DNA of 64,000 nucleotides, taken from assembly GCA_009695205.1 (NCBI GenBank), contig SIBK01000009.1:4964-68963 (forward strand), given 5' to 3'. The position numbers were made by a program, and so were the translations under genes. The stretch is from Pedosphaera sp. (lineage in GTDB: Bacteria; Verrucomicrobiota; Verrucomicrobiia; Limisphaerales; UBA9464). The notes below the pieces were generated by a model. The model did no database searches, was not told where the DNA came from, and saw nothing but the letters and a program-made list of their open reading frames with translations. Positions 2,727 through 63,012 of the stretch are shown here, in pieces (position 1 is the stretch's first letter; every line of letters begins with the position of its first letter).

Positions 2727-3060
2727 GGGCTCATCCCGATGGTGTGGGCGCTCCCAACTCGAATTGCCCGCGATTTGCCGACTTTTCACGTTTGCCAATA
2801 CGTGGGTGATGTTCGGAGCAAAGCTGCGGAGCAGCGCCAGAGAATAGCCCATGGCGGAAGCCATGGGACGGTGTTCACATCAAGTCCAAGCCCCGCCAGG
2901 GGCGACAGAGGAAGAGGACGGCAACCGTCTGCGCAAATCTCCATCGCCCCTCCGGGGCTTGAGAGCGCGCGTGTCGAGACCCACGACTGGCGCCGTGGGC
3001 TACTTTCCGGCGGCGCTCCGCGCCTTAAGAGTGCACGTGTACCAACAACTTCGGGATGCC
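2727..3060. mobile_element. MITE-like element, family A, full-length copy A1 (intergenic)
   Basis: Aligns by eye over ~334 bp with 52065-52400. Left end is GGGCTCATCCCGATGGTGTGGGCG. Right end is ACCAACAACTTCGGGATGCC (reverse complement GGCATCCCGAAGTTGTTGGT). The flanks GCCCCGAGAG and CCCCCGACCG look like a degraded 10-bp duplication (7/10). ORFs 2625-3383(+) and 2786-3076(-) are just translations of the repeat. Confidence 0.7.
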
Positions 3061-3307
3061 CCCCCGACCGAATCACACTGTATCAGCGCAGACTCCACCA
3101 ATCGGGGACGGCTGAGTCGGTGACCTGTTCTAGGCAAATTCCTATTTCCATTGCATGTTCAGCACGAAGAAACCGTGTCCCTTGTCGTGGGTTTGATTTT
3201 CAGCCGTCTCTTCGGAACTTGCTGGGTCTGTCCTGTAATCCAGCGTTGAAACGCCGGGCCAATGTCGATTTTCTCTCCGGGACATACGTGCAAGTAGATG
3301 GCCAAAG

Positions 3308-26249: not shown

Positions 26250-28381
26250 ATGAACGACCACTCCAATCCCGAAGCGATTCCCCAGGAGGGAGAAACCCAT
26301 ACACTCCGCGTTCACGGCGGACGAACATCCAATTCCCCGCTGCCACCCTCTTCGCACGCTGAAGGTTTGCCGCGATGGCTGGAGAATGGCTGGCTCTACC
26401 TTGACCGGCTGATCCAGAACTTGATTCCACCCGAGCTCAATCCCCTCAGTCAGCTCGGCGCGATGGCCAACACCTCCCTGATCATCGCCGTCCTCTCCAG
26501 CATCGCCCTGCTTATTTGGTACACGCCAAGCGTTCATCACGCCTACGAATCTTTGGAAACGATCCGACAGTCCTCGTGGCTGGGCAGCTCGACCGTTCGA
26601 TCCACCGCTATAGTTCCGATGGCTGCCTCTTCTTTGTCCTGCTGCACTCGCTGCGCATCGTCTGTCAGCGCCGATTCATCGGCCCCCGGTGGCTGGCCTG
26701 GACCACCGGTCTGCTGCTCCTCTCCCTGCTCTGGTTTATCGGGTGGACCGGCTACTGGCTAGTCTGGGACGTGCGGGGCCAACACGCCGCGCTCGGCACC
26801 GTGCGTTTTATCGATCGCCTGCCGATCTTTGCCGAACCGCTCTCCCGCTCCTTTCTCACGGACCAGAGTGTGCCCTCGCTGCTATTTTTCCTGATCTTTT
26901 TCGTTCATATGCTCGCGCCGCTTTCCATAGGCGTTGGCATCTGGATGCACCTGATGCGCGTGAACCGCGCGAAGTTTCTTGCCGGTCGCGTGATGGCGCT
27001 CTGGATAATGGGCTCCCTCGTGGTGCTCTCCCTGGTGCGCCCGGCATTCAGCGCCAGTCCTGCGCTCATGAACGTCAAGGCGCTGGAGTTCAACATCGAC
27101 GGGTGGTATCTCTGGCCGTTCGTTCTCACAAACCGGCTGAGCGGCGGATTACTCTGGTCGGTCTTCCTCGTAACAGGGATCGCGGCGCTCAGCGTGCCCT
27201 AGTGGATTGCGAAACGTCGGATCGAGCCGCAATGGAAGGGGCAGGTGGATTTACCACGCTGCATGGGTTGCACTCTCTGAGCACAGGATTGTCCGTTCAA
27301 CGCCATCACCATGGCGCCGCGCGAAGACGGGAGGAAATTCACCGTTCAATCCGCCGTGAACCCCGACCTGTGCGTGAGCTGCGGCATCTGCACCGGTTCG
27401 TGTGATTCACAGGCGATTAACATGCCCGGACTGAATAGCCGTGAGGTGGAGAAACGGCTGCACGTCTGGATCGATTCGCAAAAGTCCCGCAGTTTGAAAC
27501 CATTCGTGGCTTTTTGCTGTGCCGAGTCATCGAGTGCCGTGCTCCGCGCCGACGCCGACGGCAGCTCAGCCGAGTTGCCGGGCTACGTCGTACAAACGAT
27601 TCCATGCGTTGGCTGGGTCAGCGCCGTGATTCTCGAACGAACGTTGCAGCGCGGCGCCGGCGGAGTGCTCGTCGTCGGCTGCGGTGAAGGGGACCCGGTG
27701 GCGCACGAGGGGATGAAATGGTTTGAACAACGCATGAGGGGCCGGCGGGAGCCGAGGTTCGATCCCGCCAAGGCCGATCCATCGCGCGTGCGGTTTGCGC
27801 AATTTGATCGCACGCGCCGCGCTGAGCTGTTGAAGGTAGCTCGAGAATTCCAGCAGCAATCGACGGCGATGCCCGGCAACATGCCGCGCAGGAGACTCTT
27901 GCAGATCGCCGCCGCCATCGCGCTGTGCATGGGCTTGATCACGGTGATCTTCGCACTCAGCAACCTGCCCTACCGAACCCCTCATTCGTCCCAACCGGAG
28001 TTGGTCGTCTCGTTCAACCACAGCGGCGCCATCTTAAACGCACGCAAACTGACTAAGGAAGAACTGGCCAAGCGCCTGCCCCACATGCGCGCCCAGGTTA
28101 ACGTCACTCGCCAACGCACGCCGGTGCGCCTCCGCGTGCACGTGAACGGCCAGATTGTATTCGACCAATCCTTCCAGCCCAAGGGGCTCTCGAAGGACGG
28201 CCCGAGCATCGCCGTCGTGCGCCTGCCGGTGAGCCTCGGCCCGCACCCAGTGCGGGTCGAGTTGGCCGACACCGCCGACCCCAATGTGTGGACCAAGCAG
28301 TGGAGCGAAACGGTGAGCTTCGAGAGCAATCGAACCCGGGTGGTTTTGTTCGACACAAAGGCGGGGTTCTCGCCGCATTAG
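26250..28381 (+). pseudogene. Fusion protein: di-heme cytochrome b (N-terminal domain) + 2x[4Fe-4S] ferredoxin + MvhD/FlpD-like domain + TM + beta-rich C-terminus; disrupted
   Basis: ORFs 26178-26762, 26516-27202 and 27311-28381. Cytochrome b has two His pairs, each spaced by 14 residues (IHRYSSDGCLFFVLLH and VHMLAPLSIGVGIWMH). Ferredoxin motifs are CMGCTL*AQDCP and CVSCGICTGSCD. The MvhD-like region reads FVAFCCAE...IPCVGWVSAVILERTLQRGAGGVLVVGCGEGD. Lesions: frameshift at ~26583; in-frame TAG 27200-27202; in-frame TGA 27278-27280, at the third Cys position of the first cluster motif. Confidence 0.7.
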
Positions 28382-50598: not shown

Positions 50599-53500
50599 TC
50601 AATTTAACGAAAGGTTCACGCGGCTTTCACCCCGGTAGGCCGCGTCCACCGGCTTCGGTGCGACGAGAAAAAGCCGGTTGGCAGCGACCGGCCCGTTTTG
50701 GAGAAACCAGTCCTGAACCCACCGCTCACGAGTCGTCATCAATTCGCGAAACTCTTCGCGGGTCACCGGGATATTCCGGGTGAGAAGCTCCTCCATGAGT
50801 TCCGGCGTCGCCAACCCCAGCGCCTCCTGGTCGGCTTTGGTGAGACTTTTTTCGGCGGGCTTCTTGTGGCGGGTTCCGCTGAAGATGCCGGTCATTCGTG
50901 CGAGAAGAGGGCGTTTCGGCTGGGAAGCACTCTTGCTGGCTGCAAGAGGTTGCTGGTTGGTGGTGATGAGGGGCGGAAGATTGGTTTGGAGGATTGCAGC
51001 GATGTTGGTGCCAAACTGCTCAACGAAGGCGGCCCGCATGAGGCGGTCACGTTCCTCGGGGTTGGATCTGAAAATTTTCAAGGGAGACGGCTGGACGACC
51101 GCCTTTCGCGCTGAGTTCCTGAAGCCGCCTGGCCTTGAGTTGATCGCTCAGTTTTTGCTGCGCGAGAGCGGCACGATCCCGAATTGGGTCCACCGCGGCT
51201 TCGATCTCGAGGTTGAGCGACGGGCCCTTCGCCAACGCTGCGGTGAGTTTGCCGAGTTTGCCCACCTCACCGTCGACGAGGTTCGTGGCGCCGGGCTGGA
51301 ACTCGATGAAGCTCAGTTCATCGCCCCCGCCGCCAACCAGCGAGCCGAGCAGCTTGAACGGCGAGGTGGCGGCCTTGATGATAATGTTTACAACGACCTT
51401 GAGGATGATGGGGCCGAGGCTGAATTTCGGATCATCCAGTCGCCCGCTCAGCGGCACATCGAGTTGGATGCGCCCCTCGCTGTCCTTGAGCAACGCCACG
51501 CCGAGTTTTAACGGCAGGCTCGTGGCGTCCGGGCTGGTGTTACGCTGCCCGAGCGTGAGTTGATCAATCTGAATTTTGTTTTCCGCCCGGAGCGCCTTTC
51601 CTTCGATGCGGTAATGGAGGCTAGAGCTTACCCGGCCCTTCTTCAGCGGAAACCCCCCAATATTTCTCCAAATAGCCGGTCAGCGAGGTGAGCTGCGTGT
51701 TCGCGTTCGTGATGGCGAGGTCCACAAACAGAGCGGCTGCAAAGGGATTCACGCGCCCCGTGACGGCGAAGGGCGACTGGACGTCCACTCGGCCATGCAG
51801 GTCCACATCGGCAGGGGAGCTTAAGTCAGAAGCAAGACCTTTGACAGTGCCGCTGAGTTCCTCAATGCCGAGCACGACGCGGGGTTGCACAGATTCGTCG
51901 GCAAAGGCCACGGAAGCTCGATCCAGGAACAACGTGCCCAACTTCATGGAAAACGGGTCGCTCAGGAAATTTGTCGCGCTCCCGCCCGCGAGCGGCGCAG
52001 CGGAATCGTTCGTTTGGAAGCGGACCTTGCCCGCCGTCGTCAACGCGCCGTTCACGATGCCGAGGGGCGCATCCCGATGTTGTTGGCGCGCGCAACTCGC
52101 ACTGCCCACGATTTGCCGATTTTTCAACTTTGCCAACACGTAGGTGATGCTCGGAGCACAGCTGCGGAGCAGCGGCAGAGAGTAGCCCATGGCGGGAGCC
52201 ATGGGACCGTATGCACGATAGGTCCAAGCCCCGCCAGGGGCGACAGAGAACGAGGACGGCAACCCGTTGCGCAAATCTCTGTCGCCCCTCCGGGGCTTGA
52301 GAGCGTGCGTGTCGAGACCCACGACTGGTGCCGTGGGCGACTTTCCGGCGTCGCTCCGCGCCTTAAGAATGCACGTGTGCCAACAACTTCAGAATGCGCC
52401 CGATGCCGAGCGAAACGAACGGCTCGACATACGGCTGCGCCGCGCGAAGGTCCAGATTGGTGACAGCGACATCGAGATCGGCAAAGAGTGGTTCGATCAT
52501 CGCGGTGCCTTGTGCGGAGAAGGTGCCTGATTCGTTCAAGCGGAAAGCTATATTGGCGCGGATGGGTGTGTTGGTGACAGAACTCGCGCCTTTCAAGTTC
52601 AGCGCAACCTTGTCGAGCAGGAAGATGGCAGGCTTGGGCGGTATCAGGTCCTCGACTTTGAACGTATAATTGTCGAGCTGGATCTCATCGACGTTCAAAG
52701 TCCAGACCCAGGGCATAGGTTGAAGCGTTTGTCATCTTGCCTTCGGGCGACCCCGACGGCTCTAAATTGGATTTGATAGGCGCAGCAGCGTTTGTTCGCG
52801 AAACTGCCAGCAGACCCAGCAGGTTGATCGCACCGTCTTTATGGCGACGGATCACTACCGAGCCCCCATCGCCCTTGAACAAGCCCACCCGCCCCCGTCG
52901 ATCCTCCAGGCTGACCTCAACCCGCTCGAAGCCGATCTCTGTGACACGGGTCACCGTCTCGGAGTTCTCCGGCAAGTTCACTTCAAGATCGGTGAGTTTC
53001 ACGCCGAGATTGGTCACGCCCGCCAGCAGGCTGTTCATGCCCAGTGCAAACCGATAAGGCACACGAACCTCGACTTTCCCAGACAAAATCCTGCCTCGGA
53101 AAAAGTCCTCGGCGTACGGCAGGTATTTTTTAACATCCACGGTGCTGATCGTCACTTCGCCCGTGGAACGGATTGGGTTGATGGACACCGTGCCTTCTCC
53201 CGCAAAAACCTCCGCCACTTCGCTCAACATGCGGAAGGAATAGCGGGCATCGGAGTTTGTCCGGGTGGTAAAGTGTTTCAGGCTAACCTCGATCGGTTTC
53301 AATTCCATCTTGAACGGAGTGCGCCGCGTCAAGTCCTCGAAGGTCACCATCGCTTGTTCAATCGAAAAATCGTCCACCGAAACACTCAACGGGGGCAGCG
53401 CGGGAAGCGTGAGCAGGACGTCGATCAGGTTCAGGGTGCCGTTTTTCCGAACTCGTGAGACCAAGGCTGCTTCGGTCACTTCGACGCTCCCGAGGCGGAT

Positions 53501-54460
53501 GGCGAGAGAGCGCAGGTCAAACTCGGCCCGCTGAACGTCGAGGCCGCGCAGTTGAGTAACGATTTCGGCCGAAGCCGGATCGAAGACCTGCAACTGAGCC
53601 ACTTGGACCGCTCCGTTGGTGACGGTGAGGTCGAATCCGTTGGTACCCGCCGCGAAGCGATAGAAGAACTGCACGTCCGCCAGGCCATTCGTGATCAACG
53701 TGCTGGTGAACTCTTCGATATACGGCTAGTAACGGCTGAGTTTGACGCCCGTGACTTCGAGATGACCGGAGGACCGCAGCGGCTGGATCGAGAGATCGCC
53801 AGCCCAGGCGATGCTGCGTCCGGTGTCGCTTTCGGCACGAAACAAGTACGGGGTGTCCGAATTGAGGTGGGTGGTGAATTCGGTGAGATCAAAGTTGATG
53901 GGCCGATACTCGGTGCGGAAGACCGAACGGCGCGTGCGATCTTCCAAGGCGACGAACCCGTTGGTTATTTCAAGGCGGAAGATGTTGACGCGCGGGATGC
54001 TCGCCGGCCGGGAAGAACTCGGGAACGTATTCGCCTGGGCTTCCAACATGTTGGCGAAGTTCAGCCGACCGCCCTTCGACAAGATCACTTCGCCGAACGG
54101 TTTCACGATCCGAATTTCTTTAAATGTCCACGCCCAGCGGAAGAGCGACGAGGTCTGGAAGTTGACGTAAAGCTCGTCCCAGGAAGCGAACGGACGTCCA
54201 TCCGGTTCGGTGAGGGACAACCCGCGCACGGTGAGGGACAACGTCCACGGATTCACCTTTACTTGCTGCACGGAGGTCTGGCGCTTTGTGATCGCTGGCA
54301 GGCGCCGCACCATCTGCGATTGGATGATCGGCGGCAGGACAAAGAATCCCAACAGCGAGTAGAGAACGAATGCGCACGCGCACCATTTCAGCGCTCTGCG
54401 CACGCGAAGAGGAAGTTGATTGAGGAGTTCTGGCTTCATAAAACGAACCGGGTGCCTCAA
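50599..54460 (-). pseudogene. DUF748 (AsmA-like) large envelope protein, multiply disrupted including a MITE insertion
   Basis: ORFs 53726-54460, 52685-53698, 52363-52716, 51621-52322, 51047-51499 and 50599-51081 are consecutive pieces. The N-terminus is typical of DUF748 (FFVLPPIIQSQMVRRL...VKVNPWTLSLTVRGLSL...DELYVNFQTSSLFRWAW). Later blocks include LLKDSEGRIQLDVPLSGRLDDPKFS. Lesions: in-frame TAG 53726-53728; frameshift at ~52715; 336-bp insertion at 52065-52400; frameshift in the C6 run 51653-51658; frameshift at ~51085-51100. Confidence 0.85.
52065..52400. mobile_element. MITE-like element, family A, copy A2, inserted in the DUF748 gene
   Basis: Flanked by a perfect direct repeat, CGATGCCGAG, at 52055-52064 and 52401-52410. 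Ends are GGGCGCATCCCGATGTTGTTGGC and GCCAACAACTTCAGAATGCGCC, which form inverted repeats (19/22). Internal perfect hairpin at 52186-52205. No coding capacity for a transposase. Confidence 0.8.
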
Positions 54461-54466
54461 ACAGTT

Positions 54467-55100
54467 CTATAATTGAACAGGAGATCGCAGAGGGAGCAGA
54501 GAGGCGGAAAACAGGCTAACTCTTTCATCTGAGATGGCAGCCACGAGGATCGTTTCGGTCAGTCCGGACGGTTTTCCAAACAACAAATGCATAAAGTTTG
54601 AACCGGTGGCAACGGAGAAATTCGTCTTCCCTCTCTGCTGCGGGTGCATCCAGAAGTTGTTGGTGAACGATTCTATAGCACTCACCTCGCGCGCTCCTTT
54701 CAGGGCGCACAGCGATTGCATGTGCAGCTTTTCGCCCCCGGCGAGCCGGTCGAAGCGCCGGGTCATAAAGTGGCGCCTCCCGTTTTCCTCCAGCAGCCGA
54801 CATTCACTCATGGCGATGCCCGCCGCCTTCGCCATCAGGTTTCCGTTCATTCCGATGCGTCAGAACTTCGGACCCCAACCGGACCAGCGCATCCATCTCG
54901 ATCTTCATCGCCTTGCGTGGCTTTGGCCCGAGCTCCGGTGCAAATTCGAGAGCGCCCATGCCTCGGGTGCCTGTGTAGCACAGCCGCTCCACCGTGCGCT
55001 TGGAAACGTTCGCCTGCCCGGCCAGTGCCGCCTGCGGCTTTCCGTTCGTCCAGCGTCTATTGCGCGACGTCCAGCGGATCGTATGCGGAGGCCGTGCCAC
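54467..55100 (-). pseudogene. HipA/YjjJ-like kinase toxin remnant (HTH + HipA fragments)
   Basis: ORF 54804-55100 has an HTH-like stretch (AALAGQANVSKRTVERL) and a HipA N-domain block (GTRGMGALEF). ORF 54467-54850, in another frame, has a HipA core block (LMAKAAGIAMSECRLLEENGRRHFMTRRFDR...KLHMQSLCAL) and then degenerates. Large parts of a ~440-aa HipA are absent. Confidence 0.5.
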
Positions 55101-62351: not shown

Positions 62352-62505
62352 CAGTTCGCCAATGAGTGGGTGATGCTGCGAGCGGAGCTGCGGAGCAGCG
62401 CCAGAGAGTAGCCCATGGCGGGAGCCATAGGGCAGTGTTCACAAACTATCCAAGCCCCGCCAAGGGCGACAGAGACAAAGGACCGCATGACCCGTTGCGC
62501 AAACC
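62352..62505. repeat. Family A MITE fragment (internal part only, no termini)
   Basis: TTCGCCAATGAGTGGGTGATGCTGCGAGCGGAGCTGCGGAGCAGCGCCAGAGAGTAGCCCATGGCGGGAGCCATAGGG...CCGCCAAGGGCGACAGAG...GTTGCGCAAACCTCTGTC aligns by eye with the central ~155 bp of 52065-52400 and 2727-3060. Confidence 0.65.
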
Positions 62506-63012
62506 TCTGTCTGGACTCTTCTCTCACTCCTTCATCTTTCGGCGAGTTGGATTATATTTTTTATCAAGGTCGAATTTATACTCTTTGCGCACGGAAGCCG
62601 GCGCGGAGTCGCTCTCAACCTGCGAAACTAAACGAGCCCCTGTCCGGCTGCCGCGCCCCAGCGCGCGGACTGGGGCGGGAGGAGTCTTAACGGTGGATAC
62701 GGTTATGCCGGTTGAACTGTTCAACGAGACCGGGCGAGGTCTCGCTCCCTGCCAGATTGCAGGATCGCAGCGGTGGCTATCCGGTGTGGGGCAAGGTTGG
62801 CGACGTGCAGTACCGCTGACTTTAACCCTTTCCTGAGTTTCCGATTGGTTTCGCTTGAAGGGCGTGGCCCAGCAGTTCGCATTTTGGAAGGGTCAGCAGG
62901 CGGAGCGTCTGGTTTCCTTTCAGTTCAAAATGAGAATAGCTGGACAAAATTCTGTAGGAAGCAGGTAGAATTCCGTTGCGGAAGCTGGAGAAACCGGCGA
63001 TTAGAAGGGTCT

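Follow-up and report, generated by a model that had tools for sequence, protein, structure and literature searches.

How did a short, strongly folded piece of DNA come to lie inside a gene of a lake Verrucomicrobium, which enzyme would have moved it, and what is it made of? The locus that raises these questions lies in a stretch of 64,000 nt from Pedosphaera sp., here called the window, which corresponds to C140:4964-68963 of the metagenome-assembled genome (MAG) studied, G000 (4.95 Mb, 142 contigs; the smallest contig is 10 kb and shorter contigs are absent). C numbers denote contigs, G001 is a genome of the same genus, G001 and G002 are sister species, and L141 and L142 are metagenome loci. 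Within a gene for a DUF748 protein, the window holds an element of 337 bp that is very probably a miniature inverted-repeat transposable element (MITE) of an ISKra4-like insertion sequence (IS). The MITE itself is ordinary, and its insertion into a dying gene would be routine if taken alone. What is new is the composite architecture of the element and, through its interior, the linking of an orphan Rfam family, Acido-Lenti-1, to mobile DNA and a Y1 transposase, a link that is only partly established.

A preliminary description of this DNA had proposed a 336-bp element with terminal inverted repeats (TIRs) and a perfect 10-bp target-site duplication. All strings that it quoted are present where it placed them, including the 10-mer CGATGCCGAG at 52055-52064 and again at 52401-52410, and an intervening sequence that starts with GGGCGCATCCCGATGTTGTTGG and ends with CCAACAACTTCAGAATGCGCC(C). 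The TIRs and the duplication are both real, while the two lengths each change by one. Comparing the flanks of full copies shifts the right boundary one base further, resulting in symmetric ends (GGGCGC...GCGCCC) and a MITE of 337 bp at 52065-52401 that starts with GGGCGCAT and ends with ATGCGCCC. The duplication, GATGCCGAG (52056-52064 = 52402-52410), is 9 bp rather than 10; at the copy in C126 the tenth base differs. The anatomy observed is as follows.

50602-54460, minus strand: host gene for a DUF748 protein (PF05359), now a pseudogene, whose G001 orthologue encodes 1262 aa.
52056-52064, no strand: left copy of the target-site duplication, GATGCCGAG; the G001 site has GTCGGCATC (gene sense) once.
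52065-52401, plus strand: the MITE, 337 bp, with 6 differences (1.8%) from the consensus of six young copies.
52065-52086, plus strand: left TIR, GGGCGCATCCCGATGTTGTTGG, matching in 22/22 positions the left end of the complete ISKra4-like IS at L141.
52087-52159, plus strand: left arm, common to shorter members with the same terminus (90-bp, 184-bp and 550-bp variants).
52160-52363, no strand: palindromic core, consisting of Acido-Lenti-1 (reverse), a central hairpin and Acido-Lenti-1 (forward).
52160-52205, minus strand: first Acido-Lenti-1 motif (RF01687), scoring 49.7 bits (gathering score, 37 bits).
52228-52297, no strand: central long hairpin, GCCCCGCCAGGGGCGACAGAG ... CTCTGTCGCCCCTCCGGGGC.
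52318-52363, plus strand: second Acido-Lenti-1 motif, degraded, 16.2 bits against 38-44 in sibling copies.
52380-52401, minus strand: right TIR, CCAACAACTTCAGAATGCGCCC, reverse complement GGGCGCATTCTGAAGTTGTTGG, 19/22 to the left TIR.
52402-52410, no strand: right copy of the target-site duplication, GATGCCGAG, placed by flank comparison.

The 19 of 22 identities between the left end and the reverse-complemented right end, noted before, hold, and the agreement is better in the family consensus than in the window copy. As had been claimed, the element has no transposase-sized open reading frame (ORF), the ORFs crossing the 337 bp being spurious frames only. It is also highly structured, folding much better than shuffled sequences whether the entire element is folded as RNA (z = -8.3) or the core as DNA (z = -7.2).

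Is this an insertion at all? A priori, the 337 bp might be part of the ancestral locus, or the inverted and direct repeats might have met by chance. The orthologue of the host gene and the other copies of the element refute this, and we leave it next to no probability. Deleting the MITE and one repeat copy (346 nt) restores the minus-strand frame ...QPYVEPFVSLGIVNGALTTAGKVRF..., as the preliminary description had found, and the empty site is observed in G001. There, the orthologue is an intact 1262-aa ORF (DUF748/PF05359, 863 bits) without the element; the protein alignment runs unbroken through the junction, where the nucleotide alignment is ungapped. The target occurs once in G001 (GTCGGCATC) and twice in G000 (CTCGGCATC). 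The eight full-length copies described below speak against a chance arrangement as well.

The earlier wording, that the element was caught inside a gene, is right about the DUF748 gene and incomplete about its state. In the assembly, the host gene is further interrupted by a TAG in frame at 53726-53728 and by frameshifts near 52705, 51636-51658 and 51059-51090, and it lacks ~63 aa (orthologue residues about 729-791). The overlap of contig ends with repeats in G000, ~127-150 nt, points to de Bruijn assembly from short reads. Because of this assembly type, and because the long genes neighbouring the pseudogene are intact, we take these lesions as real. Judged by its sequence, the host gene is thus a decaying pseudogene beyond the MITE insertion, and, given these other lesions, the insertion alone did not kill a healthy gene.

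The element belongs to a family that is still recognizable throughout the genome. G000 contains eight full-length copies at 82-100% identity, six of which are at 95-100% while two older ones are at 88% and 82%. Around 50 further partial or variant matches, several at contig ends, bring the total to ~60 BLAST matches, and 90 sites resemble the terminus. Exact 9-bp duplications flank the window copy (GATGCCGAG) and the copies in C3 (CTGCAGTTC) and C126 (CGCGTCACG); at the older copies in C44 and C17 the duplications match at 8 of 9 positions, and at the oldest copy the duplication has decayed. Copy number, consistent termini and duplications elsewhere therefore all came out as expected of a MITE family in G000. 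The window copy deviates from the young consensus at 6 of 337 positions, which agrees with the relatively recent transposition proposed before; on this divergence the insertion ranks as recent, yet not as the newest copy of the family.

Several family members depart from the standard layout. At C30:5578-6127 and C31:29254-29650, the same terminus family encloses different cargo; one alternative cargo is a second GTAG-tagged hairpin, GTAG-TCGCGGAC-GGGA-GTCCGCGC, in tandem in C31. At C44:127-310, a 184-bp member with the GGGCGCAT terminus holds a nested mini-element with another terminus (GGGGAGATTGGACATTCTGGAG…CTCCAGAATGGCCAAACTCC), so two MITE families insert into each other; this second terminus type occurs at 25 sites in G000. 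Mini-elements of 72-90 bp were considered as an arms-only progenitor of the MITE, and they look equally like deletion derivatives. When other genome contigs were scanned for the terminus, it was found in many Verrucomicrobiota MAGs (51 matches, with ~17 expected by chance), and the scan returned neither a 337-bp MITE nor a full IS.

Which transposase would move such an element? The preliminary description could not name the family; an autonomous IS with matching inverted repeats now links it to ISKra4-like elements. Its traces in G000 are 20 termini lying 127-220 nt inside contig ends and pointing outward. Beyond the common 22-nt terminus, these stubs divide into two classes, of which one begins an ORF (MVSTLYLQGRTV…) and the other, in reverse reading, contains the end of a protein. 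The C-terminal part from C43 matches the NCBIfam model for ISKra4 (E = 4e-28), and a protein search returned full-length relatives on contigs of 2-3 kb, whose lengths are 414-433 aa and whose identity reaches 85%. A complete relative of 2252 bp is present in a metagenome at L141:535-2786, and the G000 stubs align to both of its ends (11 left and 9 right, ~78% identity), giving an IS copy number in G000 of ~9-11, seen solely as contig-end stubs. The left terminus of the L141 element, GGGCGCATCCCGATGTTGTTGGAG, equals that of the MITE in 22 of 22 positions. Its first ORF (L141:602-1459) encodes 285 aa with a DruA/DUF4338 domain (PF14236, 92 bits), and its transposase of 433 aa, overlapping ORF1, has ISKra4 as its best family and also matches PF06782.

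Published ISKra4-type (p-MULT) elements have inverted repeats (IRs) of 18-39 bp, whose terminal cytosine is conserved, and direct repeats (DRs) of 8-9 bp (PMC3942029). The IRs of the IS, 22-24 nt and ending in ...GCGCCC-3' on both strands, fit this description. Furthermore, perfect 9-mer pairs lie outside left and right IS stubs at C18/C97, C24/C9 and C126/C71, where 0.0004 would be expected by chance. The large IS thus also makes 9-bp duplications in G000, the same length as those of the MITE copies, and the DRs of both fit the published range. Taken together, the shared termini and the equal duplication length suggest that this IS transposase would mobilize the MITE in trans.

Three observations accompany this partner. 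The same stub pairs (C18/C97, C24/C9 and C126/C71) give three scaffold joins, as they identify neighbours across IS copies. The DruA/DUF4338 first ORF recurs in L141, in the G000 stub ORF MVSTLYLQGRTV… and at C124:~27300-28300; the domain is named after the Druantia anti-phage protein, and its presence both in an accessory protein of an IS and in part of a defence system may be relevant to the role of DruA. When the MITE is removed in silico at C44:5857, C126:20956 and C17:56172, a stop-free frame of 300-353 codons appears that begins only ~30-55 codons (90-160 nt) upstream of the junction. These three copies may therefore sit in the 5' regions of genes or just upstream of them, a placement that may be connected with the promoter-proximal targeting that some ISKra4 elements are reported to show.

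Other candidates for the autonomous element were set aside. The ISKra4-like element in C124 lacks these termini and is another IS, and G001:C213 has no more than a short remnant of the IS end. A pair of inverted termini 3 kb apart in C108 (4702/7704) turned out to be two separate MITE copies with a TonB-receptor-like gene between them.

The interior of the MITE comes from elsewhere. It had been described as structured and left anonymous; the structure stands, and the interior is identifiable. In an Rfam scan, MITE positions 96-299 are two inverted copies of RF01687, Acido-Lenti-1, a motif proposed from covariation and found in Acidobacteria and Lentisphaerae, sometimes near group II introns (PMC2864571). 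In 2026, it was still described as an abundant RNA family of unknown function. The two units of the module lie on opposite strands, ~110 nt apart. On the plus strand, the first reads ...GAGAGTAG followed by the hairpin CCCATGGC-GGGA-GCCATGGG (52186-52205), one of the two hairpins that had been noted; the other, in which GGCGACAGAG (52239) pairs with CTCTGTCGCC (52277), was likewise located. The second motif of the window copy holds three of its six private substitutions, one of which destroys the CTAC tag. Matches of Rfam mir-1803 and mir-641 to the central hairpin are chance hits.

G000 has 34 matches to RF01687, of which 22 exceed the threshold, with two inverted matches in every full-length MITE; 25 of the 34 fall in elements with these termini. 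Bare modules with neither terminus type occur in C63 and C66. G001 and G002 each have more than 30 loci whose match, at ~74% identity, is confined to MITE positions ~96-299, from motif to motif. Here, the core is contained in elements of ~330 bp with unrelated inverted repeats, CTGGAGATTGGCCATTTTCTGG (CTGGAGATTGGCCATT-type termini), so that the same module sits in two different MITE backbones. A GTAG stands directly before hairpin 1 (opposite strand) in the G000 MITE copies, in the G001 and G002 copies and in most of the Lentisphaera araneosa and Koribacter seeds read. The exceptions are C66, which has ATAG, two L. araneosa seeds without the tag, and the Rfam consensus, which has TTAG. A GTAG-type tag next to a palindrome is a feature of REP (repetitive extragenic palindromic) sequences (PMC3733652).

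The second MITE family itself (CTGGAGATTGGCCATTTTCTGG, ~330 bp, at least 30 copies per genome; G001 and G002 loci L122-L140) is often flanked on both sides by an identical hairpin of 20-24 bp, such as AGGTTGTCGCGCTGCGACAACCCC at L124 and GGGGCAGACCTCCTGGTCTGCCG at L129b. These flanks are either an unusually long target duplication or the result of insertion into REP-like hairpins. In a further genome, same-strand tandem Acido-Lenti-1 arrays occur at G484:C1:7244-8120 and C3:186709-188770, with periods of ~208 and ~505 nt; they resemble the ~200-nt tandem units of the L. araneosa seeds. The flanks of the published seeds (L. araneosa and Koribacter) showed no termini resembling those of the MITE, so not every Acido-Lenti-1 copy is the core of a MITE; the seed file lists no neighbouring transposase.

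Could the region be primarily a gene for a trans-acting Acido-Lenti-1 small RNA (sRNA) that happens to lie in repeated DNA, with RNA function driving its conservation? The match above the gathering score and the covariation from which the family was proposed (PMC2864571) are consistent with this, as is the bare module in C66, in which the linker is conserved and both stems differ completely. A hairpin kept for recognition as single-stranded DNA would show equal covariation, however, and an sRNA gene is hard to reconcile with two copies in opposite orientation per element and with dozens to at least 65 copies per genome. The occurrence of the motif inside a coding sequence, in two MITE families and in tandem arrays fits repeats that act at the DNA level better, and the second motif of the window copy is decaying. 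We thus consider the sRNA explanation improbable.

If the doublet is a DNA repeat, which enzyme might have served it first? A search with PF01797 placed a 150-aa IS200/IS605-type gene exactly between two doublets in G002 and G007. Its protein scores 66 bits against NF033573 (curated cut-off 55 bits) and 78 bits against PF01797, which are generic models only. The taxonomic family was surveyed for Y1 genes in 81 genomes, of which five, from four genera (G002, G007, G494, G485 and G449), each have a single gene of the close subfamily (at least 57% identity). Above-threshold motifs directly flank the gene at 5/5 of these loci, compared with 1/15 of the other Y1 loci (Fisher p = 0.0004). Several of these control loci have weak motif-like matches of 27-33 bits beside the gene, which suggests that these are related repeat variants. 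Across the family, motif abundance does not simply track the close Y1 gene, with counts of at least 65 in the richest genomes. The layout is that of the REPtron/TIRtron described by Di Nocera et al. (PMC3733652), who also reported that repeats flanking a TIRYT gene of Koribacter versatilis (ORF1552) form a family, without linking it to Rfam; K. versatilis is among the seed genomes for Acido-Lenti-1.

These strands can be joined in one history. The outer 22 nt on each side of the MITE are the TIRs of a ~2.25-kb ISKra4-like IS, which carries a DruA/DUF4338 ORF and a 433-aa Mutator-like DDE transposase. Acting in trans, this transposase would recognize the termini and make a staggered cut of 9 bp, leaving GATGCCGAG duplicated. 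The window copy entered the DUF748 coding sequence in a lineage that was already losing the gene or that ceased to maintain it afterwards. The interior, a 205-bp palindromic module in which two inverted Acido-Lenti-1 motifs surround the central hairpin, does not derive from the IS. Most probably, it originated as a REPIN-like doublet, first serviced by a Y1 enzyme, which came to be enclosed by DDE-type termini through capture and now multiplies as a passenger. Such a capture and passenger spread are suggested by the presence of the same module in two MITE backbones and by the young copies, which all carry DDE-type termini, while bare modules are few and diverged. The anatomy, copy number, duplications, empty site, shared termini, equal duplication length of IS and MITE, and Y1-gene association in relatives are observations; mobilization in trans by this particular transposase, the direction of capture and any action of a Y1 enzyme on the motif are inferred from them. 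As a whole, this composite explanation, with its IS termini, trans-mobilization and captured doublet, is likely, and we hold it with nearly the same confidence as the assignment of the window element to an ISKra4-like IS.

The Y1 association also suggests a different mover. In that case the element would move as a REPIN/PATE-type repeat, through a Y1/HUH enzyme acting on the internal hairpins, with the TIRs and the flanking repeat being incidental. The core is indeed a doublet of GTAG-tagged hairpins, and bare doublets flank Y1 genes in relatives. Y1 transposition, however, makes no target duplication and needs no TIRs, whereas several copies have 9-bp duplications exactly outside the 22-nt termini, the same behaviour as the DDE-type IS. 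Moreover, the young, near-identical copies all carry the termini, the bare modules of G000 are few and diverged, and G000 has no cognate Y1 gene. Movement by a Y1 enzyme is accordingly very unlikely, even less probable than an sRNA gene.

Some observations weigh against the composite explanation that we prefer. G000 has no readable intact autonomous copy of the IS, the interiors being missing from the assembly, and the longest stubs seen are damaged (an internal deletion in C126:1-537 and a frameshift in C43:1-822). The transposase of the complete relative reaches 174-179 bits against the curated NF033572 (ISKra4) cut-off of 205 bits, though profile positions 22-413 of 422 are covered; since it falls under this cut-off, we name the partner only 'ISKra4-like'. 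No flanking duplication surrounds the complete relative in L141/L142, possibly due to chimeric metagenome assembly. Past the 22-nt termini, the MITE arms and the IS share nothing, so the MITE is no simple deletion derivative. For the core, the motif in Lentisphaera stands in ~200-nt tandem units without such termini. The cognate Y1 gene is absent from G000 and G001, and several other motif-rich MAGs also are without it, to which MAG incompleteness may contribute; the Y1 homologue of G000 is only 44% identical and has an in-frame TAG and no flanking motifs.

How does the element compare with known systems? It resembles bacterial MITEs moved in trans by an IS in being small, non-coding and multi-copy, with the TIRs of a resident IS and a duplication of fixed length, as well as in its strongly folding interior and in being, as such elements sometimes are, inserted in a gene. 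The best-known structured examples are the Correia elements of Neisseria and the ERIC sequences of enterobacteria. In contrast to other bacterial MITEs, the interior of the window element is a separate, older module that also occurs bare and in a second MITE family.

Among IS families, ISKra4/p-MULT 4 (Guerillot et al., 2014, PMC3942029; NF033572) is the closest: it gives the best transposase model over nearly the full profile, and the partner shares IRs of 22-24 bp ending in C, 9-bp DRs and, as in some ISKra4 elements, an ORF upstream of the transposase. It differs in its score (179 against 205 bits), in the DruA/DUF4338 domain of the accessory ORF and in its host, as Verrucomicrobiota are absent from the list of phyla in PMC3942029. 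A literature search for MITE derivatives of the ISKra4 group found none. Plant Pack-MULEs, mentioned in PMC3942029, similarly place termini of the Mutator superfamily and a 9-bp duplication around captured foreign sequence. The element studied here is prokaryotic and far smaller, and its cargo is another repeat rather than host gene fragments, so the comparison is an analogy only.

The core is best compared with REPIN-RAYT and REPtron/TIRtron systems (Bertels & Rainey, 2011, PMC3116915; Di Nocera et al., 2013, PMC3733652). Shared features are the inverted palindromic doublet, the GTAG/ATAG tag by the hairpin in the copies read, bare doublets on both sides of a single-copy Y1/HUH gene in five related genomes, and tens of copies per genome. 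The differences lie in the units, which here are two-hairpin units of 46 nt rather than a single palindrome of 20-40 nt, in the ~110-nt spacer with its own long hairpin, in an enzyme that scores as generic IS200/IS605, and in the doublets of G000, which ride in DDE-type arms with no cognate Y1. To RF01687 (Weinberg et al., 2010, PMC2864571), the core matches over the full length, with the same two hairpins and the conserved GCUA-containing linker. Rfam lists that family as a trans-acting sRNA from Acidobacteria and Lentisphaerae, whereas here it occurs in Verrucomicrobiota (Pedosphaerales-type), always in repeated and evidently mobile DNA.

These comparisons lead to a wider suggestion, which we offer tentatively and to which we would give slightly less than an even chance. 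Acido-Lenti-1 would not be a free-standing sRNA but a REP/TIR-type DNA repeat in inverted doublets, belonging to a single-copy RAYT/TIRYT-like clade of Y1 enzymes. In Pedosphaerales-type Verrucomicrobiota, it would have been captured at least twice between unrelated DDE termini, and the resulting hybrid MITEs would keep the doublets multiplying without Y1. This would provide an orphan Rfam family, abundant in environmental genomes, with a testable explanation, namely repeated mobile DNA that brackets a Y1/HUH gene as REPs bracket RAYTs. A hybrid of DDE-type MITEs and Y1-type REPINs, as suggested by one module in two MITE backbones, would explain how the module persists without its own enzyme. 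Where annotation pipelines call these sites 'sRNA genes', they are probably mislabelling parts of mobile elements. For ISKra4-like Mutator-type elements in Verrucomicrobiota, the locus provides a non-autonomous derivative together with a two-ORF autonomous form.

Three further pieces of the family lie in the window.

2727-3063, plus strand: older full-length MITE copy, with 35/337 differences from the young consensus and a decayed duplication.
54642-54664, plus strand: solo terminus-like remnant (GGGTGCATCCAGAAGTTGTTGGT and part of a right-arm-like stretch) that abuts a HipA-like gene fragment.
62355-62511, plus strand: core-containing fragment of the family with neither terminus.

The HipA-like kinase gene fragment (…RRFDRLAGGEKLHMQSLCAL…; 54467-54850, minus strand) runs into the solo terminus just upstream of the DUF748 pseudogene, and the neighbourhood as a whole looks degraded. 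Several lake MAGs of the same Pedosphaerales-type genus have been deposited as 'Akkermansia muciniphila' (AH-24oct19-145, TH-08apr19-195 and ZH-13nov19-140), a name that looks like a taxonomy-label error.

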